NCBI GenBank assembly: GCA_041662125.1
Contig: JBAZTA010000002.1
Coordinates: 9,064-73,063, forward strand
DNA length: 64,000 nt
Direction: 5' to 3'
Source: Candidatus Omnitrophota bacterium
GTDB lineage: Bacteria; Omnitrophota; Gorgyraeia; Gygaellales; Profunditerraquicolaceae
Shown here: in pieces, positions 3 to 60,000 of the stretch
Layout of the letters: each line of letters begins with the position of its first letter
Position numbering within the stretch: position 1 is the stretch's first letter
The notes under the pieces: model-generated
The model's database searches: none
What the model was told of the DNA's origin: nothing
What the model saw: the letters and a program-made list of their open reading frames with translations, nothing else
Translations under genes and position numbers: made by a program

Positions 3-3000
3 GAAGCTAGCAGTTCAATCTGTATTGATAATGCAATAAACCAGCTCCTTGTTTTAAGAAAGATTAATGTGACGAGTATCCATCCCGATGCATTGAAGGT
101 AATTGAACAAGAAGCGAAGGCATTATATACAAATAACATAGAGTGGGTGATTAAAAGTATTCTAGGGAAAAACTCACAAGATCAAGTCACTGATGCGGAG
201 ATAAAGCTTTTACTGGAAAACGCAGAGATTGAGTTAGCCGTTATGCTTTATTCGCCTGTCCTCCGGCCGGATAATTTACTTCATCCCAATACATTGAAGA
301 AAGATATTCCCGTTAAAGGAGGGATACGTATTTTATCGCCCGTGATTGCTGAAGCAGTGATTGCTGAAATTGTAAAAGAACTAGAAGTAACATTCTCTTT
401 AAGCAAACTCTTAAACGAGTATAGAAGTAACAATAAAAGATTGTCAGTGGTAGGTAAGTATACTGGTGGCTTAATAACAGGGTTGCTTCTTGCACAGAAG
501 CTCAACTTGCCTTTCGATACACTTACTAAGCGACCTTTTAACTTTGAAACTTGTAATTTAGTGGTCACTAAGGTCGAAGAGCCCCACCTTCCAATTGATA
601 GTCCAGAATACTATTCTCATATGGTAGTTTATCCTGGCACAGGCGCTATAGTCGTAGATGATGAAATGACTAAAGGTAATGTCATTGTTAATACAAATAG
701 AGCTTTGGATGCGCTTGGAGTTAAGGTTGAGGCGAATGTGATAGTTCTGCAATCTACGGTGGAATCCGGAGTAAGGTTACGGGAGGAAGGATTAGACTAT
801 TACGTAATGGGGAGTATGGATTATGACCAAAAAGCAAACTTAGAAAGGCCAATGTTCCTGCCACTTAAGAAAATCAAAATAAATAGTAATCAGCAATTAT
901 TTTTCGGAGAATTCAATGCACATAGAGATATCCCATTAGTTGCATATGCCTTAAAAGAGCAATGTGGCAAGAAACACTATTTCGTCGATCATCCGCTTAG
1001 GGGTATGACCATGGCATTGGATGCAGATTTCTATGCTTGCTTCGCACAAATGATAAACGAAGAAATAGGTAAAATTGTCGGGAATATAGGTGCAGCAAGA
1101 AAGAGATATTATGAAAAAGGAAACAGTTTGTATATACTTGGACTAACGCCATCAGGGTTATATCCTGCATTGGCTGCTTCAATGGTTTCTCGGATTCCTC
1201 TCATAGGAGTAACGAATCAATCAGAACCCAGGGGATATCCAGGAGAAGTGATTACCTATATTACTTTAGGTGGTTCTGAATATTCTATTTACAATCTTAT
1301 TAAAGATGACGGTGTAATATTAGTTACAGGAGAGGTTATTAATGGAGAAGAACAGCTAAGAGTTATAAAAGCGTTGAAAGATAAGCAAATAGATGTATTA
1401 GGAGTAGTCTCTGCCATTGAAAATGCTAATTATAATGGGCAGGAGTGTATAGAAAAAATTACTGGAGTGCATTCAAATTCTTTCTATCATTATTCCTACG
1501 ATGAAAAAATATACTCAATAAATTTCTCTGACAAAGTTTGGAGTGCTTTGAAATATGCTGTTAAAGAAATAGAAAGGCAAATAAAAATTCTTAATCCAGA
1601 AGCAGGGATACTAAAAATACAAGTAATGCCATGTTCTTTAACTAGAGGGTTAATGCTTTATGGCAGTGATATTGATCACATGTATATATATATCAATGGG
1701 TTGAGTCAGGTCCAATTAGCAAAGCTAAATACTTTATTTTCTGGTTTATTAAGAATAGAAGGCTTAAATCTTGCAGATACTAATGAGAGCGCCCCCGTAT
1801 TATTATCAACGGAAAATTTAGAGGCTTACGAAGCTAAATATGAATTAAATGATATTCCGCAAATAGTTATCTATAGAAACGGTAAGTTTAGAGATATTTT
1901 GGAACTGGCCGAAGAAAGCAATGTTATGGAGTCAATGCGATTTTTTGAAAGAAACGCTGCACGAGTAAAGCTGCTTTTATTATTAAATGAACTGGATCCT
2001 TTATTGGGGAAGGCTTTTCTTAGATTTAGTTCAGTTAATAAGTATCAGCAAGATCTGGCGAGCTTTATGGATAATGCGCATCAGTATATATTGTCAGAAC
2101 CTGCCAAACAACTTGTGATTACCTTGGATGGCCTGTATAGAAGAAAACAGTGGCAATATAAGATTAATCATGAAGAAAGCGAAGTTTTGGGAGAGGTTTT
2201 GAATGAGTTAACCGAATTCGGTTTAGTAAGAATATATCATAATGCAATTATTCCTTTATGGAGATTGCATGGGATAAGATGGACAAAGCGTTTCTGGGAG
2301 CGTCAGATTAAAATTTCTAGCGATGAAGTCAATATTGAGGAAATATTAAACAAGGTGCAAGAAAAAAATGTGCTCTTTTTATCAGATATAAGTGACGATG
2401 ATCTTATTAAATTATTCCGTTCTGATGAGCCGCTTAAGGTAGAGCAAGCTATAAATGAAATTGGTCACCGCGATAACTTAGTTTCTCAGCTAGCCGAAGA
2501 GCTTATCGATAAGCTAATGTATCCTTCTGTGTTCGTGATAGCCGCTGCAATCAATGTGATTAAAAACCACGGGATAGTATTCCTACCCAAACTAAATAAA
2601 CAGCTTTTTGAGGTAACAAAATCTGGAAAGTTAAATGATATCTTTGGTCCTATGCAAGGGAAGGCACATTTAATTATCAATATACTATTTGATTTAGCTG
2701 TTGAAAATGTTGGGTTAACCGACCAAGTGGTTAGTTTTATATATGAAGATGTATTATCAGAAATTGAGAGGTTTTCAATTCCTCATATTTTGCCGGTTGC
2801 CCTTATGCAAGAGATTAGTATTCATTTAGGCAATATATTTAATAGTATATCTAATATTCAATTGAAAGAGAACGTCTACAGATTGCTTGTTAGGGCACGA
2901 GAAAGTAACGTGGCACGTACAAAAATGGTTGCTTCCGAAGCATTGGCTAAGGTAAAAAATAAGTCCCCTATTGCGGTAAATCATAATGTCGAGATAAGCA

Positions 3001-6000
3001 TAGATGTGAATTCAACCGAAGACGAAAGAGCATTAATTTTTAATGAATTGGAGAATAGAAGAAAAGCGGGTCAGTCTATTGAAATGATTATCGCTGACTA
3101 CGATGAAACCTTAATTAGATACATCCCTGGGGAAAACCGAACTCTCAAGCCTCAAGTATGTTTCTGGCTTAATTGGCTTATGAATAATGGCAGGCGTTTG
3201 ATAATTGCAACTGGCTCTACCTACGAGAGATTCTTTAATACCGCTTTAGATGAAAGGCTACCGATTCCTTTGATAAACTTAAAAGAACTGCATGTGTTCA
3301 CAGAAAACTGTAAATTTTATAATAATAGGGTGACTAAATTTGAAATTATCCCTAGAAAACTGAAAGAACATATTGCCGGTATGCTTAATGTTGAAGGATG
3401 GTATGAGTTAGACGATAAAAAACGTCCAGGAATTCGATTTGTAAAAGCAAATTTAAATAGATCTGAAACAATGACAGTGGCTAGAAGGCTGAACAACGAA
3501 CTTTTACGTTTAGGTTATAATTATGAAGTTATTGTTAATCGTTTAAGCGGACTGGGTGATCTGTGGGCAATAGGTATCTATACAATTACAAAATCAATCA
3601 TATTTGACCCTGCATTTTCATTAGGTATTAATAGCAACAAATCAATGCTTATATTTGACGATGCAGGAGAATTTGGGGTTGATAGATCTTTAAGTGTGCA
3701 TGCAAATGGCGCAATAATGGTGAATGTAGGAGAAGAAATAGCCACACCTATAGGGATGTATCAACTAAAAACCAAGAATGAAGATGGGGCAATTTTAGCA
3801 ATAGAGGCTTTGGTTGCCGCTACTATGAAAGAAATGTATGGAAGAAATTTGAATAATTTATTTCAAGAGTTAAGAATGAGATTGATTCAAACCAAGATAT
3901 TCGAGAACTCCGAAGTGGATTTGATTCTTCGACCTGTCAAAGCATTAACTTTAAAATGGTCATCATCAGCAATAACTATTACCGGGCACACTGGTGACAT
4001 CGGAACTGAGCTGGCACGATTTATCCTTAACAGAAATTTACCAATACGAGTGCTCGTAAGAGAAGAATCTATCCAAAAATCCCTCATGCGATTCAAAGAA
4101 GACGCGGAACTTATAAGGTATTATATCGGCGATTTATTATCTTTCTCGACAATAAGAGAGATGGTGTCTTCTACTACTAAAGTATTTTACCATCTTGGCG
4201 CAATGGTGAGTCAAGAATTTAGTTCTGAACAAAAAGCGTTAGTGTTAGCAATAAATGGTTTCGCAACAGGGTTGATTGTGAAGGCAATAAAAGATTCTAA
4301 TAGAGATATTAAATTAATTTATGCATCTAGTCAAAGAGTCTATCAGCTCTATAACCGGAAAGATGTAGTGGGTTTCATCCAGATTGCATACGATATGTTT
4401 AATAAAGAAATAGGATGTTTTTTTGATCCCTTAAATGCCGAAGTTAAAAGAAGAATATTAGCGGTAAGTCAGGCCTTATTAGATAAACTTCCGCCCGGAG
4501 TAAATATTTACGATATTTCAAAATTACTTGGAGAAAAGTTTGCTAGCGATCTCTCCAATATGACGATAGTCCGTATCAGTAATGTGTATGGCCCAGGACT
4601 TACAGGAAATAGATTGGTACGAAGGCTTATGGGAGGAAGGTTCTCTATTCAAGGTATTGAAATAGTTAATGAAGAAAGAAATTATATTTATTCTAATGAT
4701 TTGATTGAAATATTATTTAAGATTGGCGTTAATGTTAATTCGCCAAGAATCATAGATATTGCAACAGGAGCACAACTTGCCATTGAACAATTGATTAATG
4801 TTATATATAAGTTTACTCCGGACTGCTCAGGCATATTAACTCCGGTTGGTTTACACAAGCCTACTTCTGAGCAGGACGGTGATATTGCCAGGGAAATATT
4901 GGGCAGAGATTTTGTAGATTTGGAGACTGGGTTAAGAAATACTATAGATGATTATAGGTTAAGCGAAACGGATAATTACGTTCACTCGGATCCTGATATC
5001 ATTGTTTTTGATATCGGGGGAACTTCAGTGCGAGCAGGAATTTATAATAGAACAAAAGGAATTTTTAGCTTTATCAAAGAACATTCTCCAAACTTTTTCC
5101 TTTTAAATAGTGATGTTGAGAAAATGCAGGAAACGTTAATCCGTATATTAATCGACACAATCCAATATTTAAGGCTAGAGAATCCGAACAAGACACTGAA
5201 TTATGTAGGCATTGCTTTTCCTGGACCGGTGAATAACGATGGATTTATTACTGGTGCGGCTACTTTGTGGGGCAAAGCAGGAGAGGGCATTTATTATAAT
5301 TTAGCCACACATCTGAAGAAGACTATGCCTGATTTAAAGGAAGTGTTTGTATTAAACGATAATAGTGCGGCTACTTTTAGATATGTATACGAAAAAGATA
5401 TTGAAAAGATTTGTTTGGTTACAATTGGCTCTGGAGTAAGTAATAAGATAAATGATAAGAAGCAGGGGTTGTTAATGGACAAAACTGGGCTTACTGGAGA
5501 AATTGGACATTTGAAAGTCGATTTTTCACGCAATGCTTCTTTATGTGATTGTGGCGGAAGAGGCCATTTGGGTAGTGTAGCGAGTGGGAGGGCGGCTGAA
5601 AGGTTAGTAAAGAAAATGGCAGCACAACAACGTTATCGGATTCTATTTGAAAATTCTTTACTCTTCAAGTTAAGTGGTGGTGTCCCATCCATAATCGATA
5701 ATTCTATGTTAGTTAAGGCTATCAAGAATAATGATAAATTCGCCACGATAATCTTAGATAGGTTCACTTTTTATATGGCCTTGGCGATAGTGCACATTAA
5801 TTGTTCTCAAGTAATAGAAAAATTCTTTATCACTGGTGGCTTTGCTAACGCCTTAGGTCAGCATTATATAGAGTCATTGAAAAGAAACCTTAATAAGCAT
5901 GATTTTTATGGGAGAAAAGAAAACTATGTTGATTCTCTCGTTGAGTTAGGATATTCTGATGATTTAGATTGTTTAATTGGAATGGGATATTACGTAGATA

Positions 6001-9000
6001 ATCATCTGTTAACAAGAAAGCAATCTCTTATCGCTTACAAAGGAGATTTAAAAGAGTCAGCAGGTCAGCATAATAGTGTGCTTATTGAAGCAAGTGCTTC
6101 AGAAAAAATTGAATTTACGAATTATTTTACTACAAATATATTTAGTGAAACGAATACTATATTAGCTTCCTTATGTGAAGGTAGAAGTATTACAGTTGTC
6201 GTTGATGAAGTTATATTTGATTTATATAAAGATGCGGTGAGGAACTATTTAGAAAAACATAAGATTGCATTCACTTTGTATCCTTGGGCAGGGGCAGAAA
6301 GTAATAAGAATTTAGATTCAGTTTTAAGAATGATTAGTAAAGCAATAGAAGATAAAAGGGATCGCAAATCAATTTTTGTGGCAATAGGTGGTGGAGCATT
6401 AATGGATGTTGTAGGATTAGCAGCTCAGCTTTACAGAAGACAAATAGATTACATTAGAATTCCTACTACTTTGCTAGGGCTTGTTGATGCAGCGGTTGGT
6501 GTCAAAGTGGGAGTTAACTATGAAGGGCATAAGAACTTCGTCGGTAGTTTCCATGCCCCTTATGCCGTTATTAGCGATTCAGCTTTTCTTAGTACTTTAG
6601 ATGCAAGACAAATGAGGGCGGGTGTAGCAGAAATATTAAAAATAGCGATAGTATCCGATAAGGAGCTTTTTGAGCAAATTGAACAATGGGGTAAACAGTT
6701 AATTAATAATGAGCCATTTCATAAGAAAGATGGGATTATTAAACGGGCAGCTGTTGAATTATTGAAGCATCTTCAGCGCGACTTTTATGAAAGAGATTTA
6801 ATGAGACATGTAGATTTTGGCCATACTTTTGCCCATCAAATGGAAGATATGAGTAGATATTCATTATTGCATGGAGAAGCGGTAGGTATAGATATATTGT
6901 TCTCTAGTTATATTGCATTGCGGAGAGGTATTCTGCCAATTCTTGTTTTCCATAGGATTGTCAATTTGATTAAAAGTTTGGGATTACCTTTATTTGATGT
7001 CTCAATTAATTTTAATGAAATATGGAATGGTATAGAGAAAGCTAAAGCTCATAAGGGCGGCAAGCTTACAATGGTAATTCCTAAAGAAATCGGGCAGACG
7101 GTATTTATCAATTCTTTATCTAAACAGGAGATTAATGGAACCCTGGTTTATTTTAAGAAATTAAATGAAAACACGTTTCAACAAGATTCAAGTAGCCCGG
7201 TAAAATCAGAAAGGCGAGTTAAGATTGAAGAAAAACTAGCGGCGCAAGATCTGGAGCATAAGGTATATCTGATAGAACAAAAGCATATTAAACAAGTAAA
7301 AGATTTGTTTGTAAGGGGTTATGACTTTGATGTAGTTTATCATCCTGTGGAGGACTGGGATTCTGGTAAGCTATTCTCGTACTATGGAGAATTTGAACAG
7401 GTAGAAGACCCGGATGCTGGTAAGCCGTTCTCTCACTATGCAGAATTTGAATCTGCTGATAGGCCGGAAAGATTAGAAATTGTGGTCAAATCAAGCAGCG
7501 GGATAATATGGGCTTTGCCTCCAGAATTGCTGGAAATAGCATTAACTATTAGGTGTAACTTAAAGTGTCTTATTTGCTCAAGGTTTAACAATGACTGGCG
7601 TAAACAAAAATTAGCATATATATCTTTAAAGCATTTCGAGCATATTTTTTCCTCATATGATTATCCATTTCCTCGCATCCAGTTTTGTGGCACCTCAGAG
7701 CCAACGCTTAATCCTCAATTGGTGGATTTTATTCACTATGCTGCAACAAAAATGGCTTCCGGAAAAGAAATAGAGCTTATTACTAATGCTATATTACTCA
7801 CTCCTGCTCTTAGTATGGCATTAAAGGATGCAGGATTAACTTTATTAAAGGCGAGTATTGACGGCCCGGTTGAAGAAAGGTCACAAGGCGCCCCTCGACA
7901 AGCTCGGGGTAAACAGGTCTCAGGTCGCATGTTACAAGATTTTGGGTGTTTGGTGGGAGCAAGAAGCTCGACTTCACCCTTACGCGCTATAGATCAGGTT
8001 TTAAATAGTGAAAATAGAGTGTTTGGAAAGAGTATGATCCAATCGGTTATGCCTCGCGCTCCTCCGGCTATATATTCATCCGCTATTTCTATAGAAGCGA
8101 TTGGTAGGACGTTAAACCATTCAAGCAGCGCGATCACTGAAGCTCGCAACCGGCGCATATTACAGAGAGTGGTGAATTTCTTGTCAGTGAGAAATGAGTT
8201 AGAAAAAGTTGAATTGATGATGGTGTTGGGAAGTCCTGATTTGCGAATCCCGGAAGTTGCCGCTGAACTGTATAAGCAGGGTTATGCATTTAAGATAATT
8301 ACTTCCGGAGCCAGAGGCAGATGGGGTAATCAAGATTGGAAACTGACAGAAGCGCAGATTTTTAAGAAGATAATGGTAGAGAGAGGCGTGCCGAAGAAAG
8401 TTTTCTTACCGATGGATAGAAAAGCTACTAATACGGGAGCGAATTTGAGGAATATTATTGCTATTCTGAAGAAAAAGGAGATAAAGCCGGAGAGTATTTT
8501 ATTGCTTCAGACGCCTATTTCACAGAGAAGGACATGGGCTAATTTTACCCATGATTTTGAAGCGGAAAAAGGTTATTTCGGAGCAGTTAAATGTGTCAGT
8601 TATGCGCCGTATATCCCTGATGTGGCAGCAATGAGTTATGAGGAATTCTACAAGTTGCTTATTTTTACCTGGGGAGAAATAGAGCGGCTTGTTGAATATA
8701 CCTATAACGGTTGGTTAGATAAAAAGTTATCTAGAGTTTCTAAGAAAATGGTGATGCAAACAGCCGCAGCTTACATGGATGAACGAAAGAAAGAATTAGC
8801 TAAAAAGTTAGTTTCCAGTAGCCCGATACAATATACCGTTAATCGGTACCAACCTCAGGTTTATAGTGTTGATATGTGGGTTAATAAAGTTCCGAATGGA
8901 AGATATTATTTCAATAGAAAAACCAGCGTGGTTGAAACAACTATGCCTCATGATCCCAAAGCGCATGTTACAAAAATTGTAGGCAAACCAATAGAAGAAG

Positions 9001-12000
9001 CATTGGCTCAATATCAAAAGGGATTAGATAAGGATAGAATGTTGGTTAACCTTATCTTAGATGGTGACCTTTATAATAATGATTATTCCTGGACTTTTGT
9101 AAACGGGAAAATATATACTAATACCGAAGAAACAATTGAATATGCGGAGAACTTATGGTTAAAAGATATATATTTTTCCTTGATCATTCTCGAAAATGGC
9201 AGCTGGTCTATTGAAGATGTGAGAGTTAGAAACTTTGAGAAAATAGTCCATGATGATGGTTCTATAGAGTTTGTCGGCGCCAGGGTCTATCGTTTGGGTG
9301 GATCAGAGATAGAAAACGTTAAATATGCCAAATCGTTGAAAAGAAGGGTAGTCAATGGGCAGGTTGTAGATGTTGCTGATGTAGCGCTAGATTGCGCGGA
9401 TATGAATTGGCTGTTCAGGCTGCCGTTATTTAAGAAATTACAGACTGAAAAATATCGCGAGCTGTATTTTGGGACTGCAGAGTTGGCTACGGATAAGAAA
9501 AAGAGAGTTTTAGCGGCAGGCGGAGAAACTGTTGAACTTGGTTTAGCCGAATTAGACACTTTAGTATTCGGAAATAATTTAGCTGAAGAATATAAAGAAG
9601 CATTAATTGAAAAGGTGTTTGGAGATTGGGGATACGAGCGGGTAAAAGAAACAAGTGATATCATTGCCAGAGGCCAGTATGTTCTCGACCAGCAGAATAA
9701 CAAAGTTATTCTCAAGTTATTAGAAGGTATCAATCCTTTGAATCTGATCGGTATTGATAATGATGGTAATTTAGTCACTGTCGAGATCCATGGGGAAGCT
9801 CGTAAAGCAGGTGATTTGAGCACCGGGACAACCATGAATAAAGCCGCTCTTCTGATGAAGGAATTAGGTATTGTTAACGGCGGCATGTTGTCAGAGAGTA
9901 AAGATGTAAAGTGGTATAACTCGGATGGTACTTGGAAGTTCCAGTATGAAAATACTACTGCTATGGTATTTGTGACGAAAACAAAATCTGCCGGCAGCCC
10001 GATCCGCGCATTACTAGTTATAGTTGGTTTATGGGGTATAGTTTTTATTATTTGGCGTATATTCAAGAAATTGAACAGCCACTTGTTAGTAAAGCAAGTA
10101 GATATGTTGTTAGATAATACAATCCTAAGTTTATTTTCAAATCTGCACTATATTAATACCGAGATATTACAGATAGTTGAGCCGGGAACGGTTATTTTGT
10201 CAGAAACTGTAATTTTTGTGCCTAATTTATTGGCTGAATTTGATGATTCGCGTGTGGCTATAGTACATGGAGAAGGTAAAGGTAATGCTTTTATACGAGT
10301 GTCAGCGTTAAGGCAAGTTAATCCAGACAGAATTAATGATTACCATACACTTGTTTGGGAACTCCAGCGAATGGGATATACCATTAAGCATGTGGGATAT
10401 GTAGCATTTGAGAACGTTGATCTTAGTTCAGGGAAAACAAGCAGCCCGATTTTAGGAGAGTTTAGAATTAAGTGGTATCTCTGGAAACTAAGTAGTTCTG
10501 ATTCGTTCATTCAAGAAAGGGCATATAAAACTTTAAGTGAATTAGGTATAACTGTGTTACAGGTGATTCAGCGTTATAAAAAGGACGATAAAATATTAGA
10601 GGTTATTAATCGTAACATAGATTTCTTAAACTGGTATTTTAAGCGGGAATCTGTTTACAAGATTACTTGTGAATCTGGGGAGCGATGGGGAAGCGATGGG
10701 GAAGGGACAGGAGGAGCTTGTTTAAAGTCTTATTTTAATGCTAGTAGGGAGTTGGTTTATAAAGGGTATATGCGTAAGGGTGTTGGAGCAGAGGTGGACT
10801 TTGAGGAGTATGGGGAAGAGGTGGAATATCATAGTGCTGATGAATCTGAGCCTTGGTCAACTCCTTGGAAAGTGGAGACTTTTTATCGCCGTAAGATTGA
10901 ATTAGCTTTAGTGGAATTGAAAGAATTCGCTTTATCTCTTACACAGGAAAATGTGCAAGTAAAAATACACGAGTTGATGGTGAAGGCGAAATCCAGTAGT
11001 CCGATTGAGGATATACAGCAGATCACAAGCTGGGAGTCTTCTGAGGCAGTGTTTGTGTCAGAAATGCCGCTGGCCGAGGCGCCGGAATTGCTTGAGATAG
11101 AGACGTCCAATAAGTGTAATCTAGGCTGTGTCATCTGTTTCCATTCAACCAAAGAAATTAAGCAGGAGAAGCCTGCATATTTGCCTTTGCAGGATTTTAA
11201 ACGTATTCTGGATTCCTATGATTATCCTTTACCGAAGGTCCAGTTCTGCGGTTCTTCAGAGCCGACACTTCATCCTGAATTGCCGGGTTTTGTTGCTCAT
11301 GCAGCAATAATGGATCAAGGTAAAGGAGTGGAGTTGATCACGAACGCCACGCTCCTTACGGCTGAACTTGCAAAAGCTTTGAGCGATGCAGGGTTGACTT
11401 TATTGAAAGCAAGTATAGACGGTCCTGATGAGGTATCATACCGGGCGATCAGGGGACATGATCTTTATCCTGTATTGCGAAATCTTACAAGACTTTCTGA
11501 AATAACCAGTATCCCACTTTGGATAAATTGTGTGGTTACTCAGTATAATTTTAACAAACTCGCTCATATGCCTGCTCTTATTGCTTCTGTCGGTGCAAAA
11601 TATCTTGCTTTTAGGCTCTTTGAATGGCAGACCTCTAAGATTGGTACAGTAGGTTATTATGATAGCAAAGAGCTTAAAAATATGCTCGCGGCCGTGAAGG
11701 AAGAATGTGTAAAGAGAGATATCGTATTGATCTATCCGGATATAACAGAGACAGTAAATAAGGAATGTTTCTTGCAAAAAGAAGCGAATGTTAATCATCG
11801 CGGATTCTTGACACCTTGTTATTATCAACCTCGGGAATCCGTGGGTGAGAAATTAGGAGCTCGAGAGTTCTCTCAGGTCTGGAACAGCGAGGTAATGCGG
11901 AGAATCAGGGCGAATATCAATAATGGCATATATCTGCCTGAATGTTGTTGTTTGGATGCGATCTTCGCTCAGACTCAAACTGATCCTCAATTTCATTATC

Positions 12001-48000: not shown

Positions 48001-51000
48001 GAGGGATTGTTGGAGAAGATGGCATAGAAGGCGTAGAATTGACAGAACCATATATAGCATTTCAGAAAGAATTAGTTGCGCTTAAACTGAAAGGATTTTT
48101 GTTAGCCATTAATAGTAAAAATAATCCTATTGACATATTTGAGAGGGATTTAAGATGGAATAGGGGAATATTCGCGAAACGCCAGGAAATGGTATTAAGG
48201 GGAGAAGATTTCGCAGTTATGCAGGTTAATTGGCAAGATAAAGCGGAGAATTTAAGGAAAATAGCGTTGGAATTAAATATAGGTTTAGAGAGCCTGCTTT
48301 TCCTAGATGATAGCGTTCATGAGCGTGAATTGGTAAGGCAAATGTGTCCTGAAGTGTTTACTCCTGAATTTCCCACTGATCCTGAGCAATATGCTGATTT
48401 TATTAAAAATTTAGCTGTTTTACAGAAAGATATCGTTACTGTCGAGGATAGGAGGAGGTCAGAGTTATATCTAATACAGCGGGAAAGGCAAGAGTCAAGA
48501 GCAAGGGCTGGTTCATACGAAGAATTCTGCCGTTCTTTAAATATTAGAATTATTATTAGAGAAGGAGCTGAAAACCTTCCCTATCTATCCCGATTGTCAC
48601 AGCTTACTCAGAGAACGAATCAGTTTAATGTCAGGGGTAGCAGGTATGATGAAGTAACAATTACTTCATTCATAGATAACCAGGATTATTTGGTTTATAG
48701 CTTGGAGTTGATGGATCGTTTCGGAAATGATGGGATTGTTGGCTTGATTATTGTCCGTAAGTTTGAAAGAGTCTATTGGATAACGGCTGAAGAGAATGCT
48801 TGGATTATAGATACGTTTTGTTTAAGTTGTCGAGCAATAGGCAGGACTGTAGAATGGGCATTTATGAGTAATGTTGTTGACCGGTTAAAAAGTAAGGGAG
48901 TAAATCTTTTAATAGGAGAGTATGTTCGTACGGAAAGGAATGAATTAGTTAAAGATATCTATGGAAAGTTTGGTTTCTCAAGACGTAACGATACATGTTT
49001 CTGGAAAGCGCAGGTTGCTTGTTTAACTGTTAAGGCGCCGGATTGGGTAAAGATTGAACGATCCAGTTCTCCGATCCTGGTAACTCAAAATAAAACCATG
49101 CCTGCCTGCCGGCAAGGCATGGACTATCGACCATGGACTATCGACCCGAAGAACAATATTAACACCAGAGGAGCTCTGATGACTACGTGCGGCACGCAGC
49201 GTGTTCTTGGCCGGCAGTGGAGTTCTTCAGCTATTCGCAGAGTAACAAAAGATGAGCAGGACAGTAAAGTCCTTGCCGGCGTCCCGGTTATATTGAATCA
49301 AGCCGAAGAAACGGTGCAGGGTAAGATTGAAGAACTCAGCAGTGAGCATCTTCCTTTGTTCCGTGATTGGTATCATTCCTCGTGGATTTCGTTCGGGAAG
49401 CTTAATTTATTTGATCAGGGCCATGTAGAGTCGTTATTTCGATATTCCTCGCCCCGTCAGAAAACTTTTGTTGCCTTAACAGAGATCCCGGGCTTTGATG
49501 AGATACTGTATAACAGATTCGGTTTTTTAAAGAATAGGTTTGTGGTTTCAGGGCAAAAGCAGGTCCAAGGCGCTGTCAATATCAGTATTAATTATAAGAG
49601 TGTTATTATCGATCAAATCGAGACTGCGCCATGGAATCAATTCAGGAAAAATCCAGTTGTTTCTTTAGTGGGGAGTAGTTTAATTTGGTTTGTTTGCTCT
49701 CGGTATATAAAGGCAACCAATCGAGTCCTTCGTATTCGTGACCCATCGCCTCAAGGGATAGAATTCTTTAAACACTTATTCTTCCGCCAATCTTTGCACT
49801 ATACCGCTGATGAAGTTGGGAGTTTTATACGACGATACGAAAACCTTTATAAATCTTTTTATCATCTTTCTTCTTCCAGTATTCAAACTATTCAGTTAGT
49901 CAAGAGTATTTCAGCGTCTCCTGTAAGAAAAGTTAAGGTTGATTCTATCAGCGAACTTGCTGAGGGGCATGATTTTTGGGTTTATGATTTTCGCCTGCAA
50001 TTCAGGCATTACCGTTTGGGCCTGCTTCATGAAGTCTTTCAAGCTTTAGGGAAAGAGGGTAAATTCTATTGGATCGAATGGCGCCAGCATTTGAAGCCGC
50101 AGGTGATCCATTTGGGAGTTGAAGCCCAGACAGTGGAAGACGCGCTCATGATCAAAGAGCGGTTATCCGGGATCGAGGACAGGATAGATCAAGATTTCGA
50201 AACATCGTATAAAGACCGGGAAAAATGGATCATGGAGTTTCGCATTCCTCATGACATGGAGCAGGTCAGGGCAATAACGCAGTATTTATATAAACAGGAT
50301 ATTAATATCAGCGCTTTCTTTACTCCCCGCCTGAGTGATGGCTGGGATGAAAAGAAGAGAAAAGCGGATTTTCTTTTTGAAATACAGTCTCCTCATGATT
50401 TCCAACCGGAAAGAATAATCAGGAACATTAAAAAGATGATCGGCTCCGATAAATTCTCTCTTGAACGCAGGGACCTGATCGGTAAGATAATTTCCTTGTT
50501 ATCAGCTCAGTGTAATATAGCTTTCAATAATGACGAGAGAGAGCTGATGAGGAAGGCATTTGAGGTAGTCGCCTCCAAGCATGCCAGTCAATCAAGAAAA
50601 GACAAGGTAAACCCGTATTTTTCTCATTTGATCGATGTCGTTAAAATGCTCCTGGTTGATTGTAAGCTTCGGGATATTGACCGTAAGCTTCGTCAGGTCA
50701 TTATTATCGCCGCTATACTCCATGATAGCCTTGAGGAAAAAGATATTACTGATGAAGTCCTCCTGGAGATTTTCGGGCCGCGCGTATATAGGATAGTTAA
50801 ATTACTCACGAAGCATTCTAAGAATGGCGCTCTTAATTTGAAAGAATATTATACGAAATTAAACCGGGCAGAAGGAATAGAAGGCGTTATCGCTCGGCTA
50901 ATAAAAATGGTTGACCGTATTCAAAATGTGGCGACCATGACAGGCAGGTTCTTGAAACCTGATTTTGTGACCCAGAATTTTATCGAAACCCAGGAAGTTT

Positions 51001-54000
51001 TTATCCCTGTTTTTATGGAGCCGGCCTATACCCGGATAATGTTTACCCTTGGGCTTAATGAGTATACCCGGTATTTCCTGGTAGCCTTTGGCGAAGCGTT
51101 GGAATTGTTCTCCCGGACATTTTTCTGGACCGGCGGGCATCCGATCTGGCGGTATGTCAGGCAGGACCGCAGGGACCGAATTATCGGGTGGTTCAGGGAA
51201 AAATCAGATTCCGTATGGTATTTAAAGTTTAAGATCTGGTTAGAGGTATTTAGTCCTTCAGGGGAATTTTCTTTACCGCAGGAATTTCGCGGCACTGAGG
51301 GCAAAGCGATAGAATTATATATTATCGATAATTTCGACCAGTTTGTCACTAAGGCCGCCCGGAAGATCATTCAGGCAGAGAAAGAAAAAAATAAACGGTT
51401 TTCGGGAGAAAGGGGAAGTTCTCCTCTTACAATAAAACTTATTCTCCTTGATATGGATCAAACACTCTATACCTGCCCTCAGTTGACCCGCTCAATCCTT
51501 GAATTGAGCTATTCTTTCGCTCTTTCATTTGGCATAACCGCTTCTGAGTTAGCGCAAAGAATAAGGATTTCCGGAGGGAGCATGACGGCCGCGATCAAGT
51601 CGTTCGGGTTATCGATCGATGAGTATTTCTATTATATAGGAAAGAATTCTGTTTTCAGCGAACTCAAGCCTGAGCCGGGTTTATGGGAATTGTTTGCGCA
51701 GCTTCGCCAGGAAGGGTATTATCTGGCTATCGCTACCAACAATGGTTTGATATTAACGGACAAGATCCTGGAACGGTTGCGGCTTAAGGAGTTTATCGAT
51801 TTTACCATAACACAACAACAGACAGGCCGGGGAAAGCCTGATGAGTTGATGTTCGAGATAATATGCGAGCATTTCCATCGGCTCACCGGGGGCAATAATG
51901 AGCGGATAGTTTCAATCGGTGACCGAAAAGAGTTTGATCTGTATAGTGCGGCTCGTATCGGTATCGCGGGAATATTAGTTAAGGGGCCGCGTGATCTGGT
52001 AGAGAAACTAAAGAGAAAAATAACCGAAATAATGTTACTGCGGGCAGGGCTGTCGGCGGCAGTTCCGCACGATTTGGTCATTCCCGGCATTAACTTTGCT
52101 TCTTCTTCTGTCGTAGATCATTCATCTTCGCCGCTCGGGCCGGAAAATAGAACCGTTCCCATTTCTAAAGATTGTTTTGAAAAGGTTCAAAAAAGCGCCT
52201 TTAGCGTCATTCCGGAATATCTTTCCCTTTTCGCGACCGTTAACTTTACGGCAGCCTCACCGGTTATTACTCGAGAACTTAAAGCGATAAAAGAATTAGT
52301 GGGTTATTTAAGGGAAGGAAACGTTAAGTCCATGGGAGAGATGGAACCGTTACTCTTATTATTAAGAAGTAACTTAACCGGTTTATCCATAGAAAGCCAA
52401 GATATTGAAGTAATGTTGCAGCAGATAGAGCAAGATAAGTATAGGGTACGTCAAGAAACAAAGATTATCAAATATTTGAGGGGAGAATTTGCGGATATTG
52501 TTGATCAAGACGATAAAGAAATCGGAGTGACTGAGGTTGGATTCGCGCATATATTCGGATTAAGGCATAGAACTACAAATGCTTTTGTAGTGACTCCCGA
52601 AAATAAGATCTTATTACAGCGAAGAGCTCCGGGCCGCGCTTATGAACTATACCTTTCTATTTTTGGCGGACACCTAAAAGCTGGCCAGGGATATGTCGAG
52701 GCAATAAGGGAGGAATTACAACAAGAGTTGCATTTGGCAGGTTTACCAAAAGGCCGATTGGTCGAATTAGGTAAAGAAAGGTATGAGGTTGAAGGAGACA
52801 AAAACCGTGAATTCAGGGCGTTGTTTATCTATTTTTTGACCGATGAGGAATATCGAGAAGTAATGGATTACGCGTTGTTATTGAAGGATATTGTAAAAGT
52901 TAATACCCGGGAAGCGTTCGTTCAATATTTTGATGGAGAAAGTAAGAATATCGGTTATGGGGAAGTATGGAGTTATTGCGAGTTTGATTTGAAGGAAGTT
53001 ATCAATGCTCCTGCGAGAATGCAAAAAATAAGGGAATGGGGACAATATGCAAGCTTACATTACCTTCTTTGTAGAGATGAGTTTAAAAACGGGGCAGTTA
53101 TCTTACGGTCTTTCTTTACGCCTGATCTATTGGAACGGCTAATCCTTAATGAAAAAATATTATTATTGTTGCAAGATAATATTAGAAAACGCGATGTTAG
53201 CTCTGCTTTAGCGGCTATGCAGGATAGCAATATTATAAGTGACGATTTGCAAAAGTTTATTGAAACATTAATTGAATTATTAGGCAAAGAAAATACCATT
53301 TCGTTAATGAAACGCTTAGAAATTGCGCGGAAATTATTGTATTTCGCAAGTATAGATGAGAGCAATGTGAATATTGCCCTTTCGCTTTTTAATATCAGTT
53401 TAGCAGAAATCATAAGCAGGTTGGTAGACTACCCGTCAGGCTACTTTCTCTCTGAGGTGTCTTTTACAAAAATGCATTTTTGCCACCCCGCAAATATAGA
53501 GAAGATATTGGGTATAGAAAATATTTGTTTCGAAAGGAAGGAGGCGGATATTGTGGTAGTGGGAGCCGGTAAGATTGGAACAATGGCGGGGGGGATAATC
53601 GGAAGAATGATTAATAATAAAGCAGAAGGCATAAATCTTATAGGAGTTGTGGAGCCGTCGTTAGAAAACTCCAATAGGTTCGTTGAACATTTCAGGCGAG
53701 TAAACCATACTCAGTATGCCCCTGATATTTTTAGGAATGAAGATGAATTGAGCAAGTGTGGAAATTTTTGTCCTGATAAAACAATTGCATATATTGCGAC
53801 ACCGGATCATATGCACTACGGTTCGATCCGGCGTTTATCAGATATAGGGGTTAAAAAATTCATTTTAGAAAAACCTGTCTCCGGTTCAGTGGAAGAACTA
53901 AGAGATATGGTTGAATTTATTACAAGTAAAAAGCTCGTCGTTGTGGTTAATGAACAATATTTTTATTCTCTGGCTATGGGGATATTACAGGAGTATTTAA

Positions 54001-57000
54001 GCAGAAATATGAATATCGTTCCTTTGTTTGGAATAAATTATTGGACGAAAGATCGCAGGGAAGACGCCGCGCGCGGGAGAAATACTAATACGGCTAGTAT
54101 TTTTAATTACGATATTTTTCATCAAATTTCAACATTTTACAGTTTGTTAGGGGCACCTGCGGCGATTTCGGCTTTAAGCGAAGATATGGTGTTGGATAGA
54201 AAGGTTATCCCCGGACATGGTCAGGGAGTTGTATTTTTGCAGCATATTGCTTTTAATGGAACCGGCTCCATTTCCATGATGGACCACGAAAGAAAAGGTA
54301 AATACCATCCTACTGAGAGGGTACTAAATCTATTCGTGAGGGATTTAAAAGACGGCAAGGTTAAAGTTATAAGAGTCAACTTTGGATATGCCGATTATCT
54401 TTATAGCTATATAGATATTGCCGATGATGAAGGAAACACGCAAGTTATATCAGAAGGTATCAGGGATGATTCTATAGCTAGTTCAATGTACTATTCTATT
54501 AGAGGGTTGATAGGTCAATATAGGGTCCCGGGAGTTTTGGATAAGGTGCTCCCGATTCATGAGATAATTGCTGCAGCTGAAAAAAAGAATAGACAAGCGG
54601 TATCGAAATTTCCTCCTGTGATGAAAATTAAATCGAATGATTTTAAATCAGTGAAAAAGTTGCAAAGTGCTATTTGCGTTGTTTATCCCTCATGTGCCGT
54701 TGATGTTAAGGGAGTAAACGGAAATGTCGGCTTAGGTAATAAATGCGCTGTTACCATCCTGTGGCTGTTGGAAGGCAATGCTTGGTTGATGCATAAGGAT
54801 GTTGATACTCTTGTTTCTGTGGGCGACCAGATTGTGATAAGCGCAGGAGATAGTTTAAGGCTTTCTGGCCGGTTCAAATACCTGTCTATAGTACTGAATG
54901 TAGGAAACCCGGAAACTTGGGTCACCTCAATAACTCTTGTAAAAGATTTACCGGATGTTCCTGGGGGGTGTAATATCGCTGGAGAGAACGTGTTTAGAAG
55001 GTTATTACTGTCTTACGACCCAACAGGTATGAGGCAAGGAGTGAACGCGCACTTAGTAAGAATAAATAAGAATACGTCGGTCCCGCATTTTCATGTTAAG
55101 CAGCAGGATGAATTGTATTTAATAATGAGATCTGAAGAGTTTAGCTCGGATAATTGCTCCATCCGGGGAACCCTGGATTTATACCTGCCGAGTAATGATT
55201 TTAATAAGTATGAGCGTATCAGAGTTAAAGCTGAACCGGGAGAAATTATTTATATACCCACAGGAATAGGCCATCAGGCAGATAATATGTGGGCGTTGGT
55301 GATTGCAATTCCCGGATTTATTCCCGGTAATGAAATACCTATAGTACAGGAAAGGTTGCCTGAACTTATCGTGTGCTCTTCTGCGATACGAAAGGATGTT
55401 TTTGATGATTTTATTATTGCTCCATTTACCGGAAAAGAAAAAACGCAAGGTATGGAAGTGTTTAGTTTAATAGAACGTATGAGGGTTGAAGATTATATGG
55501 CGATAATTAGGCCGATTTTACGCACAGAACAGAGTTTCAATAAGAGCCGCGAGCTATCAAAATTAGCTGCTTCAGGAGAGTTGTTTAGGATATTCCCTTT
55601 TCTTGTAATGTTAGCGTCAAAAGAAATGCTGGGTCATCCTGCGGTTTGGGAATTTTTTGATGCGCTTGATAGGATCATGCGTTTGGATGATGAAATATTT
55701 GAAGAGAAAAGAAGATCAACGTATGTTCGGGCAGGAGGAGTGGAAAATGACCTTAAACCATTGGATTTATCAAAGAATGAGATTTTAGCCGTTTTAATAA
55801 AGCGCTTGTGGGCGGATATGAAGGAGCAGGAGAGAGAACTGTTGTTTCTAATGCCGCTTGTTATAGATATAGGTAGATGTGTGAAGCCTCAGGCGCATCC
55901 GGAAATAGCCGCAAGATATTTTATTCCTTTGGTATTAGCAAAGTTGGGCTTTAGTGATACAAAAACTGAATTAGGAGTAAATTTAGCGTTTAGTCATACA
56001 GATATCGGGACTGTGATTACTTCGGAGGCAATTCCTTCAAGGTTAAGCAGGTGGCCTCTTAGTAATCAGCGGGAATTGGATATGCTTACGGTTATTTCCA
56101 TAGCCGATAGAAGTTATGGCGCAAGAGCGGCTGATTTGACGCCTGAATTACTCGATCAGTATTTGATGTGGGGTGACTTTAAGCTAAGAAAAACTATCCT
56201 TCTTGAAGATTGGCATTTAAGAAGGTTAGGGCGTTATCTTGCATTATCTCTCGCGCAAACAAAGGAAAGGTTGACTTTTTTCATGCAACAAGAAGGGGTA
56301 TCTTATGATGATTTGTTGATCTTGGAAAGATTCTTTGGCTGGCAAATCGAATTTATCGACTATGGAGAAGCAGTGTTTAAATATTTAGCCTCACAAGATA
56401 ACAGCGGATTACTTTTAATTAAAGCGTTCTTCATTTTATCAAAGACGGTGGTTGAACTTTTAGAGAATGTTAGTCGTCTTAATTTAGTGAAAGAACGTTC
56501 TCAAATAGAACGTTTAAGCGAGGCAATAGTTCGTGCAGATGTGAATAATCCGCCTGCTTGGCATTTAAAACACTTTGCAGAATACGGGGTTCATCTTAAA
56601 GCGGCAGGAGATAAAATCGTCAATATTATCGCCGCAAGCAGTGCTATCAAAGTCGTTCATGTTTCATACCAGGATCCAAGCCATCTCGCCGGAGGCCAGG
56701 GGGTTGCCGTTTTAAATATATGCGAAGCATTGGTGCTAAAAGGGTATGAAACGGTTTGGATTTCTCCATGCGTTAAGGATGAGTTCCCGGGAGAGTTTCG
56801 ATATCTGGATGGTAAATTAAAAGTTGTAAAGATCAAGTTAGGCGATAACCCCCTTTCGCTTTTCGCAAGCAATGAAGCGACACAGGCGTATAGGGAAATC
56901 TTTGGAGATAAGTTTGTGCAATACATAAAACGTCATTATCATCCCCGGGAATGTTATATCCATCTGCATGGTTTCTTGGAGGAGCCCAGAAGAGCAAAAG

Positions 57001-60000
57001 GTTTAATGGAAAGCGGCTATAATGTTACCTCTACTTTTCACATGTTTCTTTCTCCGAGGTTAGAAGAAACAAGGGAACAACAACCGTTCCTTGCCAGATT
57101 AATAGAATTGGAGCGAGAAGCCATCGCGGCAAATGCAAAAATAATCGTAAACAGTGTAATGATGAAAAGAGAACTCCTAAGATTATGCCCTGATTACATG
57201 GGAGATTTGTTTGTTATCCCTAATGGCGTCGATGAATATCATTTCGAGATGAAAGAATTTCCTCAGAACAAAACACCGATAATATCTACTTACGGCAGGA
57301 TTTCCCCGGAAAAAGGTTTTGATATTTTTATAGAAGCGGCGAAGATTATAACCGAAAGAAGGCGCGCAGATGGTAAGCAGCCGGTTGATTTCTTGTTGTT
57401 CGGTAAGACTGATGATAGTATAGAAATTAGAAGGAAGTATAAGGAGAAATTGGAAAAATCAGCTGCTGGTTTTGATAATATCAGGCTTATTATGACGCCA
57501 GAAGGCGTGTGGGGGGCAAATAGAATAAGGCTTATCGATGAGAGTTGGGTAGGAGTAGTGCCGTCACTCTATGAGCCGTTTGGTTTGGTTTTGACGGAAT
57601 ATATGTCACGAAGAAAAGCTGTAGTAAGCACTTTGACGTATGGGGCAAGAGATATACTGGGAAAAAACAGCTTAGGAGAGAAAGGTATAGAAGAAACACT
57701 GTTTGGCCTGGTGGTAAAAACCGACGCGGTTTTTATTGCTGAAGCTATTGAACAGTTATTGAGTGATACTCGGGGAAGGATAGAGAAAGGCAATGCCGCC
57801 GGAAGAAGAGCCCTGGAGATGTATAGATGGCCAAGGATAATCAAAGACATAATTAAGGTGTATCAAAATCATGCGGCGGATCATACTCGCCCAGGAACTG
57901 GGGGGGATTTGTTTGTTTTGCGTCAAGATATTGAACACCGGTGGAATGAGTTAGTAAACAAGGAATTAGCAGAGAGAGTGGAAAATCAAGGGATACGTGA
58001 GGTTGAAACTACTGGGGATTTGAGTAAAGAAGATGGGATTATATGGTTCCCAAGATTGTTAAAATATAAAGTTTTGGATAAACCGGGTGAAATTGTAGAA
58101 TTGCCGGGTCCTTTAGCGTATCAAGAAGGAGAGTGGTTAGTACAATACAATTTGAGCAGGGGCGTCCCGCGCGGCGAAGGACAGGATAAGGCTCCTGTAG
58201 TGAAAGACCAATGTGTATTTTGCAGAATGGTAGGTAATGCTGATAATAAATTTTTGCTTATTGATTTAGAAGAGTACTTTGGCCTGCCATATAAACTTGT
58301 GGCCGACTCGCGCCCATTCTTTGATAGGCATATGCTTATTTTGGAAAAAGGGCATACAGGAGGTATTACTGTTAAAGGTATGAAAGACCTGTTGTATATA
58401 TTTAACAGATTATTCCCCGGCAGGAGAGGTAACATCGGCACCGGTAATCAAGCCGCGCATTTACATATCCATGTTTATGATATCGCTTTTCCTATTGAGC
58501 GTCAGAAGCGTGAGTGGTTATGGCAGGCTCAAGGAGTTAAAATCGGTTTGTTGGAGAACGGAATTGGTACCGCGGGATTTGTGGTGGAAGGAATTGATGC
58601 CGGTAGCTTGGCAATTAATTCATTTTGGCTTTTGGGCGAATTAGAAGCTTTGGGTTGGCTCATGGTGGTTATGACTGCCCCTCACCAGGTTTACATTATA
58701 CCGCAGAAAAGCAAGGAAATAGGCGATGCCTATCCGCCGATATTAGATGCATTTAAAAAGAACAGGCCAATTGGTATGCGGCCGCGTTATGTTGGCCCGG
58801 TCGAAGTAGCGGGTATTTGGCTTTGTTACAGCCGCGGGGATATCCACGCGATGGAAATAATGTATGAAACAATAGATTTGGAAATATATAAAAATATTTT
58901 GCGGGATACCGGAGTTAACAAAAGTGACCCGGGTGTAATAGATATAATTAATAAAATCTCTGCAAGGCAAGCATCTTCCAGTATTAAAACCGATCAAATT
59001 AAACATTTGCCGATTGATCATTTAATTGACGAAAAATGCATCTTTTTAGAGTTACACTTGACGAACCAATGCAACCAAGATTGTGATTGGTGCAGCTATA
59101 AAGAGGTCAGAAACTTTGAATATATCAAATTCGAAGATTTAGATAACGTGGCTTCTCTATCTCCGGAAGAAATCTTGATTGTTGGCGGAGGAGAGCCTAC
59201 TCTGTATGAAGACGCAGGTAAGGATTTTAATGATGCGGTGTTACGGTTAAGAAAGCTTTTGCCAATGGTAAAAATCAGGCTTATAACCAACGGAACATAC
59301 ATCCCGGAAGGGCTATGGTATAAGGAAATATCAGAAGTCAGCATATCCTTAGATGCGACCACGAGGGAAGATTATTTCAGAACGAAGAAAGTAGATTTAT
59401 TCGTTAAAGTTTGGGATAAGATTAATTGGTATTTCCGGATAAGCCGTATACCCATCGTGAGAGTTACCATGATCTATAATAAAGATAATTTGAGTAATGC
59501 GATTATCTTGGCAAGAAAACTCTGGGAGGTAGTTACAACACAAAAAGAGGGGGCTCCGGCCAATACGTCAACGTTGTGGTTTATGATATTTCCTATGGCA
59601 AATGATAAAAATTTCGCCGCGCCATACGAATCGACCGAATTGAACGATAAAGAGAAAGAAGATTGGAAAGAGAAGCTGGAAGAAATCAAGAAAACAAACT
59701 ATCCTTTTTGGGTTTTCTTAACTCAAAATACTAATCTTGCCACTCAACCATTTCGGAGGCTTTTCGTACGGCCGGCTCACTGGTGTTGGCAGGTTTCAAA
59801 TTATGTGATAGTGGGCGCGGATGGTAATTTCTATCCTTGTTTCGCAGTGTGCGAAACGCATAGAATAAATCATTTAGGATCATTGAACCAAAGCGCCAGA
59901 CAGCTTAGGGATAAGAGGGTGCAAATATTCAGAAATCCTCCTATGGAATGTAGAAAGGGTTGCAGGCCGATTACTACTTTTTACGGGATAAAATCAATGG

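Follow-up and report, generated by a model that had tools for sequence, protein, structure and literature searches.

The 64,000-nucleotide (nt) stretch of contig JBAZTA010000002.1 analysed here (assembly GCA_041662125.1, positions 9,064 to 73,063; referred to, at its full length, as the window) raises the question of whether an assortment of nucleotide-metabolism enzymes—phosphoribosyltransferase (PRTase), HIT, Nudix-like and HAD-type domains, all placed by a first-pass annotation on the same polypeptide—really occurs on one protein and serves a common purpose. Based on the evidence presented below, the window probably represents an inner part of a single giant gene longer than 21,332 codons, belonging to the multi-enzyme type of Omnitrophota, in which the flagged nucleotide-handling domains are real without making up one nucleotide pathway, the Nudix and HIT domains being part of a conserved cassette.

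The reading frame and its composition

The element in question is a single open reading frame (ORF):

3..63998, forward strand: giant gene ORF of 21,332 codons with 0 stops, both ends running past the window

The placement of all the domains on the same polypeptide holds at the level of the reading frame, frame +2 being open throughout, and every motif string quoted in the first-pass annotation was found exactly once, at the position given for it. In a six-frame translation, the remaining five frames of the window contain 746–1973 stops, and none of the three stop codons occurs in frame +2 (nt 3–63998). An alternative genetic code was rejected as an explanation for so long a frame, since it is in this one frame only that all three stop codons are missing.

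Concerning the possibility that the frame is an artefact of chimeric assembly or of sequencing errors erasing stops, the G+C content at third codon positions (GC3) is very uneven among the modules (0.25–0.67), and two of the GlgE repeats described below, being 87% identical in DNA, could mislead assemblers. Such an origin is, however, extremely improbable: 21,332 stop-free codons are impossible by chance or random joins next to frames so rich in stops, independent contigs (L003, L004 and P0004) carry a block of 3.5 thousand amino acids (kaa) collinearly in long ORFs, and complete long-read genomes back giant ORFs in the phylum Omnitrophota. The GC3 values by module—DHQS 0.25, PRT 0.31, FkbH 0.31, HAD-IA 0.52, GlgE copy 1 0.59 and GlgE copy 3 0.67—suggest, by their spread within one ORF, a mosaic origin with recently acquired segments.

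The protein was scanned against Pfam in five overlapping pieces and against NCBIfam in 27 overlapping pieces of 1000 amino acids (aa). Recognisable domains cover, by a rough tally, about half of the residues and represent ~30 distinct Pfam families in more than 21,332 aa, which agrees with the description of Omnitrophota multi-enzyme giant proteins as ORFs that reach 10 kaa or more and combine numerous Pfam families, none of them dominant. The closest loci are Omnitrophota metagenome-assembled genomes (MAGs), with 37–59% protein identity. From the N-terminal side, the domains are two PRTase-like ones, a weak HAD-IIB-like domain, an SDR epimerase/dehydratase, a ROK kinase and a DHQS-like cyclase, followed by a partial radical-SAM domain, DUF218, a radical SAM/SPASM domain and three GlgE-like units of ~1040 aa. 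The middle part continues with GGDEF, a RelA/SpoT synthetase-like domain, a maltokinase, a 4-alpha-glucanotransferase (MalQ), TPR, a methyltransferase, FkbH and a SpoT-type HD domain, and the C-terminal part comprises HAD-IA, Nudix, GFO/IDH/MocA, GT4, an unannotated stretch with a His triad, radical SAM, PPDK_N with PEP-utilizers and the start of YkuD. The dikinase and kinase domains claimed for the protein are present (PPDK_N 216 bits, ROK, maltokinase; Pfam and NCBIfam).

The conserved cassette and its fusion states

At least two of the flagged domains, Nudix and HIT, lie in a conserved cassette at aa ~17,493–21,010, composed of Nudix, GFO/IDH/MocA, GT4, Apa2-like HIT, radical-SAM and PPDK-like domains:

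52479..53144, forward strand: Nudix-fold domain, YfcD/DR0079-like, aa 17493–17714 (Pfam PF00293 26.5 bits, above the gathering score of 21.1)
53235..56621, forward strand: GFO/IDH/MocA oxidoreductase and unannotated 'Y' region, aa 17745–18873 (Pfam PF01408 41 bits)
56646..57866, forward strand: GT4 glycosyltransferase, aa 18882–19288 (Pfam Glycos_transf_1 64.7 bits, Glyco_transf_4)
57933..58916, forward strand: Apa2-like HIT-superfamily module, aa 19311–19638 (CVFC at aa 19404, DSRPFFDRHML at aa 19435, HLHIHVY at aa 19486)
59013..60032, forward strand: radical SAM domain, aa 19671–20010 (Pfam PF04055 38.9 bits; CNQDCDWC at aa 19690)
60096..63032, forward strand: PPDK/PEP-synthase-like phosphotransferase, aa 20032–21010 (Pfam PPDK_N 216 bits, PEP-utilizers 34.7 bits)

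A homologue of the HIT-like module, P0001, is a free-standing 348-aa gene on an unrelated contig (L001), in a cluster of PPDK-like (917 aa), GT4 (399 aa), HIT-like and radical SAM genes, the consecutive genes of which overlap by 4 nt. The segment aa 18882–21010 of the giant protein corresponds to the four L001 products at 25–44% identity (GT4 43%, radical SAM 44%), and its junctions, ~20–30 aa long, have about the same length as the unaligned termini of the separate L001 proteins. The likening of the protein to a multi-gene operon is literal for this segment, which is collinear with the four-gene cluster, the Nudix domain being elsewhere encoded upstream by its own gene or fused at the N-terminus; the analogy is, however, limited to that block. 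Other loci exhibit the following arrangements:

L006: GT4 gene, then a radical SAM–HIT–PPDK gene
L007: NUDIX gene, then a GT4–radical SAM–HIT–PPDK gene, then PIG-L
L005, P0009, P0010 and P0012: HIT–PPDK fusions
P0006 to P0008: radical SAM–HIT–PPDK proteins of ~1650 aa
P0002 (= L002): Nudix–GT4–HIT–radical SAM
P0004: 4637-aa Nudix–GFO–Y–HIT–radical SAM–PPDK–GT4 protein, immediately after a 9350-aa ORF
L003 and L004: giant ORFs in which the cassette block has its HIT-like module in two or three tandem copies

The linkage of the cassette thus ranges from none to complete, i.e. from adjacent genes whose stop and start codons overlap through fusion proteins of 1.6–4.6 kaa to segments of giant ORFs. 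The label Candidatus Omnitrophota is carried by L002, L003 and P0010. The GFO/IDH/MocA domain and the 'Y' region are kept with the cassette in other giant ORFs (blastp identity 34–40% for L004 and 34% for P0004). The GT4 is closest to the GlgM/'glgA_Coryne' subfamily (TIGR02149 63.7 bits, below the cut-off).

The PPDK-like part consists of an ATP-grasp, a swivel-His domain (GSHTAIASR at aa 20430) and a conserved C-terminal region, and is 25–37% identical to its counterparts in L001, L003, L004 and L005. It resembles rifampin phosphotransferase (RPH), PigC/RedH and PEP-synthase-like enzymes in having the PPDK_N ATP-grasp and the phosphohistidine swivel domain with the conserved His and no PEP/pyruvate TIM barrel, whereas its C-terminal region of ~540 aa is peculiar to the cassette; the NCBIfam matches to PEP synthase, RPH, PigC and RedH are all far under the equivalog cut-offs.

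It should be pointed out that the order of GT4, Y, HIT and radical SAM is permuted among genomes. The tandem HIT-like copies number two in L003 (10001–12091) and three in L004 (7986–12140), two being adjacent in each and the third of L004 following the radical-SAM domain. On the contig of assembly GCA_053990915.1 (L008; 1–9455 and 24759–28295), a 43-aa ORF lies between the 9350-aa ORF and the 4637-aa cassette protein, with a 1178-aa UDPGP-family protein next, an arrangement that could be a split or not-yet-fused form of a larger giant gene.

The existence of separate and fused forms bears on whether the giant ORF might be a polyprotein, translated once and then cut by a protease into single enzymes, so that the precursor would be transient and no channelling on the protein would take place. 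Peptidase domains (C39 and S8) near the N-termini of giant proteins might cleave them (West-Roberts et al.), the cassette works as separate proteins in L001, and the short junctions (20–30 aa) match the joined termini of separate proteins. A polyprotein nevertheless seems unlikely, since no peptidase domain occurs among the Pfam matches in the (partial) window and the stable intermediate fusions of 1.6–4.6 kaa in many genomes mean that joining the parts covalently is tolerated and has recurred; no cleavage motif recurring at the junctions was noted either, though no systematic search was made.

The contents of the cassette could also be taken for a conflict or predation module, making or destroying a modified nucleotide in the manner of prokaryotic viperins for attack on a host or for defence, rather than for housekeeping sugar metabolism. 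The best profiles of its radical-SAM domain include MoaA and viperin-type enzymes, which act on nucleoside triphosphates (PADLOC pVip 38 bits), its GT4 matches the Pfam family 'GT4-conflict' (24 bits in the window, up to 51 bits in L002), and Omnitrophota have been described as predatory or episymbiotic. This role is quite unlikely, however: the pVip match covers just the generic N-terminal radical-SAM core of ~110 residues, the GT4, the HIT-like module and the PPDK have no PADLOC match, the GT4-conflict scores are under the generic GT1-family scores, and the small-gene versions are flanked by housekeeping and sugar genes (PIG-L, UDPGP, EF-G). The assignment of the cassette to a defence system was rejected, because PADLOC gave only a generic radical-SAM similarity to pVip.

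Concerning the HIT-like module itself, its string HLHIHVY at aa 19486 (nt 58458) is the sole HxHxH followed by two hydrophobic residues in the 21,332 aa, with ~0.03 occurrences expected from the protein composition. The His triad is kept in nearly all homologues, the first His being invariant and the second and third nearly so, and CxFC and RPFF are likewise nearly invariant among 12–15 sequences of 37–59% identity; the triad is lost in one relative, P0014, and the family otherwise keeps the third His, Q being found in its place only in P0010 (HQHIQ). No Pfam or NCBIfam HIT match above threshold was obtained. With nine HIT-like sequences searched against Pfam at E ≤ 10, the best match was the weak DUF4922 (E 0.066), and PDB sequence and profile searches gave marginal matches (E 0.03–0.5), four of the top five being HIT proteins. 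The family is very rare, with 14 members among 1.84 billion representatives, and a homologue search of the word-indexed database with the single sequence and then with a nine-sequence profile retrieved P0001 only.

The fold was assigned from an AlphaFold prediction made with a 12-sequence alignment. A fold-level comparison of the predicted structure revealed the HIT alpha/beta fold and, as in Apa2, a two-lobed HIT1/HIT2 core accompanied by an auxiliary domain, so that the HIT triad proposed by the first-pass annotation is confirmed at the fold level although sequence models give no match. In the HIT motif, the second His acts as the nucleophile, HXHXQ being the usual form in the GalT/Apa family (10.64898/2026.09.13.751320); the HXHXQ of the GalT/Ap4A-phosphorylase family is absent here, the window having HLHIH. 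The module shares 12–15% identity with the yeast Ap4A phosphorylase Apa2 (PDB 4i5t/4i5v/4i5w; GalT family, HIT superfamily) with no sequence-profile link, and differs from it in its HLHIHVY, with the third His kept, and in being always linked to radical-SAM and PPDK-like partners. The GDP-sugar and ADP-glucose phosphorylases of the GalT/HIT branch (GDPGP1/VTC2, i.e. Pfam DUF4922; At5g18200, PDB 1z84) score under any threshold and have a different motif. Judged from the predicted structure, the module is a putative, previously unrecognised Apa2-like branch of the HIT superfamily, missed by sequence models.

The Nudix domain aligns across its box with PDB entries 2fkb (E 9e-5) and 1q27 (E 1.6e-3). 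The box, at nt 52668–52736, reads G-x5-Q-x7-EELQQELHL for the consensus GX5EX7REUXEEXGU, four of the seven signature residues being changed—the first Glu, the Arg, one of the paired Glu and the Gly—and calling it degenerate was correct even though PF00293 is passed. Compared with the YfcD/DR0079-type Nudix hydrolases (2fkb, 1q27), the domain shares the Nudix fold, with the best sequence matches spanning the box, but it has Q, E, Q and H where those have E, R, E and G. The cassette orthologues, in contrast to the window, keep R/K-E-L-x-E-E (RELLEELGL in P0002/L002, KELREELF in P0004), and the degeneracy is specific to the window copy. A weak NCBIfam match to isopentenyl-diphosphate isomerase (IDI) was rejected as the identity of the domain, because, in a manual alignment to E. 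coli IDI, the position of the catalytic Cys is Gly (GGHL). In L002 (4640–4770), the Nudix domain seems to extend upstream in another frame (DVVDDADRVILKTEGG), which implies a frameshift or a sequencing error; the ORF may be longer and connected to a HEAT-repeat protein.

HAD-type and PRTase-like domains

The remaining flagged domains are situated outside the cassette:

396..809, forward strand: PRTase-like domain 1, aa 132–269 (Pfam PF00156 17.6 bits, below the gathering score of 26.3; NCBIfam OPRT/APRT E 7e-4 to 5e-3)
1134..1505, forward strand: PRTase-like domain 2, aa 378–501 (NCBIfam HPT_Archaea E 2.4e-6, 27 bits; APRT 8.7e-6)
3084..3722, forward strand: weak HAD-IIB-like domain, aa 1028–1240 (TIGR01484 20.3 bits, below the cut-off of 41.8; E 4.4e-4)
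47958..48980, forward strand: FkbH domain (HAD-IIIC phosphatase and C-terminal part), aa 15986–16326 (TIGR01686 244.4 bits, cut-off 146.65; TIGR01681 53.4 bits, cut-off 35.75)
51441..51998, forward strand: HAD-IA phosphatase, aa 17147–17332 (Pfam HAD_2 59.5 bits, gathering score 23.8; Hydrolase 58 bits)

The identification of an FkbH-type HAD is well founded, the curated cut-off being passed and the four HAD motifs being present. Its motif string VVVDADGVLWGGIVGEDG (DADGV...GEDG) is at aa 15990 (nt 47970), the motif residues are D15993/D15995, S16038, K16080 and D16102–D16103, an SCR motif is located at aa 16275, and all four motifs are aligned in the match to the structure of BF1531 (PDB 3slr; E 1e-28). 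The likeness to FkbH-like HAD-IIIC proteins (TIGR01686; BF1531, 3slr) includes the C-terminal SCR motif, the difference being that the FkbH of the window is one domain within a giant protein. An acyl carrier protein is needed for the glyceryl transfer function of FkbH, not for membership of the domain; no PP-binding match to such a partner was found by Pfam within the window, the gene extending past both its ends.

The classical HAD passes the Pfam cut-off and keeps its four motifs as well. The strings LLDMDQTLY (aa 17148, nt 51444) and GDRKEFD (aa 17306, nt 51918) belong to it; motifs II–IV (T17245, K17278, D17307/D17312) are aligned in the match to PH1655 (PDB 2hoq; E 4e-7), motif I (D17150/D17152/T17154) having been read straight off the sequence. 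The pattern DxDx[TV] alone occurs eight times in the protein, three of the eight being backed by a domain call, and is therefore informative only where such a call backs it. The second HAD of the first-pass annotation is possibly the HAD-IIB-like segment, with the candidate motifs DYDET, IIATGS, K1197 and IFDDAG, for which a PDB sequence search gave spurious matches only.

The PRTase-like domain reported previously has its motif VVDDEMTKGN in the expected place (aa 217, nt 651) and its acidic pair is kept in copy 1, whereas its profile score is sub-threshold (17.6 vs 26.3). In the match of this copy to the PDB APRT 5b6h (E 0.002), VVDDEMTKGNV is aligned to VVDDLLATGGT, so that the acidic pair, T and G of the PRPP-loop are kept and two loop positions are altered. 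In copy 2, the acidic pair is replaced by T-G (GVILVTGEVINGEE; LVTGEVINGEE); because of this replacement, the copy is probably not a catalytic PRTase, and a PDB sequence search with it yielded spurious matches and no PRTase. Neither copy reaches the gathering score of PF00156, their NCBIfam matches of 16–27 bits are far under the cut-offs, and the region aa 110–520 has no homologue at E ≤ 1e-3 among 5.8 billion proteins.

Taken together, three of the domain identifications are robust, the one of HIT is confirmed by structure and the PRTase-like one is sub-threshold. The search with hidden Markov models domain by domain, combined with an audit of catalytic residues, found the motifs of FkbH and HAD-IA and the HIT triad intact, and those of the Nudix box and of PRTase-like copy 2 altered. 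The suspicion that some of the domains may be degenerate was justified by the last two, i.e. by the Nudix box EELQQELHL in place of REUXEEXGU and by the missing acidic pair.

It might even be supposed that the flagged domains are mostly pseudo-enzymes, i.e. decayed remnants serving as scaffold or ligand-binding modules of a structural giant protein. Besides the Nudix box without four of its seven signature residues, which the L002 orthologue retains, and the PRTase-like copy 2 without its acidic pair, this would explain PRTase-like copy 1 and the HAD-IIB-like domain under the cut-offs and the loss of the His triad in P0014. Such a general decay is very unlikely, however, as every catalytic motif is kept in FkbH and HAD-IA, the HIT His residues, CxFC and RPFF are invariant or nearly so across 12–15 sequences, and GGEEF with its I-site, the three CxxxCxxC clusters and the swivel His of the PPDK are intact.

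Nucleotide metabolism as the common theme of these domains was not borne out: FkbH and HAD-IA have no specific nucleotide assignment, their best NCBIfam matches being far under the equivalog cut-offs, the PRTase-like pair has no homologues, and the domains are spread over a mosaic protein.

Proposed role, related giant proteins and further features

The preferred reading, i.e. a giant multi-enzyme gene with a conserved cassette, can be extended to a possible mechanism. The giant gene would have grown by the in-frame welding of whole translationally coupled gene clusters with almost no linker. Its HIT-like module may work like HIT enzymes, forming a covalent nucleotidyl-histidine on the second His (H19488), and may phosphorolyse or transfer a nucleoside monophosphate from a nucleoside diphosphate (NDP)-sugar or a dinucleoside polyphosphate, thereby supplying or modifying the pool of substrates available to the GT4 next to it. 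HAD-IA and FkbH, both intact, would dephosphorylate sugar-phosphate or glycerate-type intermediates, and the Nudix domain of the window and PRTase-like domain 2, with their signature residues lost, would probably bind ligands rather than act as catalysts. The whole array could be a tethered enzyme set for glycans and sugar phosphates, together with the three GlgE repeats, the maltokinase, MalQ, the epimerase, the ROK kinase and the DHQS-like cyclase. It would be located on the cytoplasmic side, because the cofactors on which the radical-SAM, GGDEF, RelA/SpoT and ATP- or PRPP-dependent domains rely are cytoplasmic.

Substrates may be handled on the protein, as proposed by the first-pass annotation, and the most economical reading would be that it makes or edits sugar phosphates and nucleotide-activated sugars used in glycan synthesis. 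NDP-X phosphorylases and transferases share the fold of the HIT-like module, and enzymes of the GlgE pathway—the maltokinase, three GlgE repeats and MalQ—are found in the same protein. As a tentative possibility, the cassette may represent an undescribed pathway built on nucleotidyl-histidine chemistry, with an NDP-sugar or a dinucleoside polyphosphate as its substrate, and the fusion series may reveal that giant genes grow by in-frame capture of operons into tethered assembly lines.

Several points weigh against the reading preferred here. The evidence for fused operons concerns ~3,500 of the 21,332 residues, the FkbH, HD, HAD-IA and PRTase segments not being traced to operons. The HIT module lacks support from profile models and has HxHxH where the structurally similar GalT/Apa family usually has HxHxQ, the PRTase-like pair is sub-threshold and without homologues, and the attribution to Omnitrophota is based on 37–59% protein identity to MAG loci, an exact 60-mer of the window having no match in genome_contigs or metagenome_contigs. 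Finally, seven possible membrane segments, obtained by a crude hydrophobicity scan and giving an inconsistent topology, would place some of the cytoplasm-dependent domains outside the cell. These are strongly hydrophobic segments of 19 residues (Kyte–Doolittle) at aa 3336, 9243, 9380, 10105, 15482, 15516 and 21082.

As for the giant proteins described previously, the 'Archaeovorin' proteins contain glycosyltransferase, methyltransferase, NUDIX and PPDK domains (West-Roberts et al. 2023, bioRxiv 10.1101/2023.11.21.568195), and NUDIX, HIT, HAD, ROK, radical SAM and GT group 1 domains recur in the 'multi-enzyme metabolic cluster' class (Nielsen & Lui 2026, bioRxiv 10.64898/2026.06.07.730766). The window resembles the Omnitrophota giant proteins in being an ORF of more than 10 kaa tiled by methyltransferase, HAD, NUDIX, HIT, ROK, radical SAM, GT group 1, PPDK and TPR domains, with few hydrophobic segments, internal repeats and Omnitrophota MAGs as its closest loci, and differs from them by having no SecA-DEAD, C39/S8 peptidase or HEAT domains among the Pfam matches in this internal slice. 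Neither of the two preprints describes the cassette, the Apa2-like identity of the HIT module or the series from separate genes to giant fusions, and the words 'fusion' and 'fused' are absent from the text of the second one (10.64898/2026.06.07.730766). Multi-enzyme giant proteins of Omnitrophota with NUDIX, HIT and HAD domains are already known; the new details are the cassette and its range of fusion states. As a bare domain inventory, the protein is ordinary for this class, but the published work, while cataloguing the domains, does not explain the origin of the architectures or the functions of the modules. Since small genes hold free-standing counterparts of the 3.5-kaa block, its expression and assay without the rest of the giant protein would be feasible, and growth by fusing translationally coupled genes is a testable model.

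Apart from the flagged domains, the frame includes domains related to second-messenger nucleotides, of which GGDEF and the RelA/SpoT-like one were missing from the domains listed in the first-pass annotation:

28308..31040, forward strand: GGDEF (aa 9436–9600; Pfam 139.5 bits, TIGR00254 170 bits) and RelA/SpoT synthetase-like domain (aa 10106–10346; Pfam RelA_SpoT 33.6 bits)
50556..51011, forward strand: SpoT-type HD (HD_4) hydrolase domain, aa 16852–17003 (Pfam PF13328 36 bits; TIGR00691; H, HD and DRxxN present)

The GGDEF domain has an intact GGEEF and an RxxD I-site, and the EXQXRT motif of the synthetase-like domain reads EVQIFS. The HD domain is positioned ~6,500 aa C-terminal of the latter, second-messenger enzymes being thus built into the giant protein.

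The three GlgE-like units, ~1040 aa each, lie in tandem at 16500–25910 of the window (aa ~5500–8636). At the protein level, copies 1 and 3 are 84–92% identical and at the DNA level, over 3.1 kb, 87%, copy 2 being 47–66% identical to both, which points to a recent duplication or gene conversion internal to the giant ORF. Right after the third unit, at 26799–26999 (aa 8933–8999), there is a weak Pfam match to a ParE toxin (20.5 bits vs the gathering score of 23). A partial radical-SAM core is present in two copies of 57% identity, at 7512–7874 (aa 2504–2624) and 11073–11432 (aa 3691–3810), and CxxxCxxC clusters occur three times in the protein, at aa 2518, 3705 and 19690. A YkuD L,D-transpeptidase domain begins at the end of the window (63699–63998, aa 21233–21332), C-terminal of the hydrophobic segment at aa 21082; this arrangement is a hint of a polypeptide passing through the membrane at that point, with cell-wall enzymes further on.

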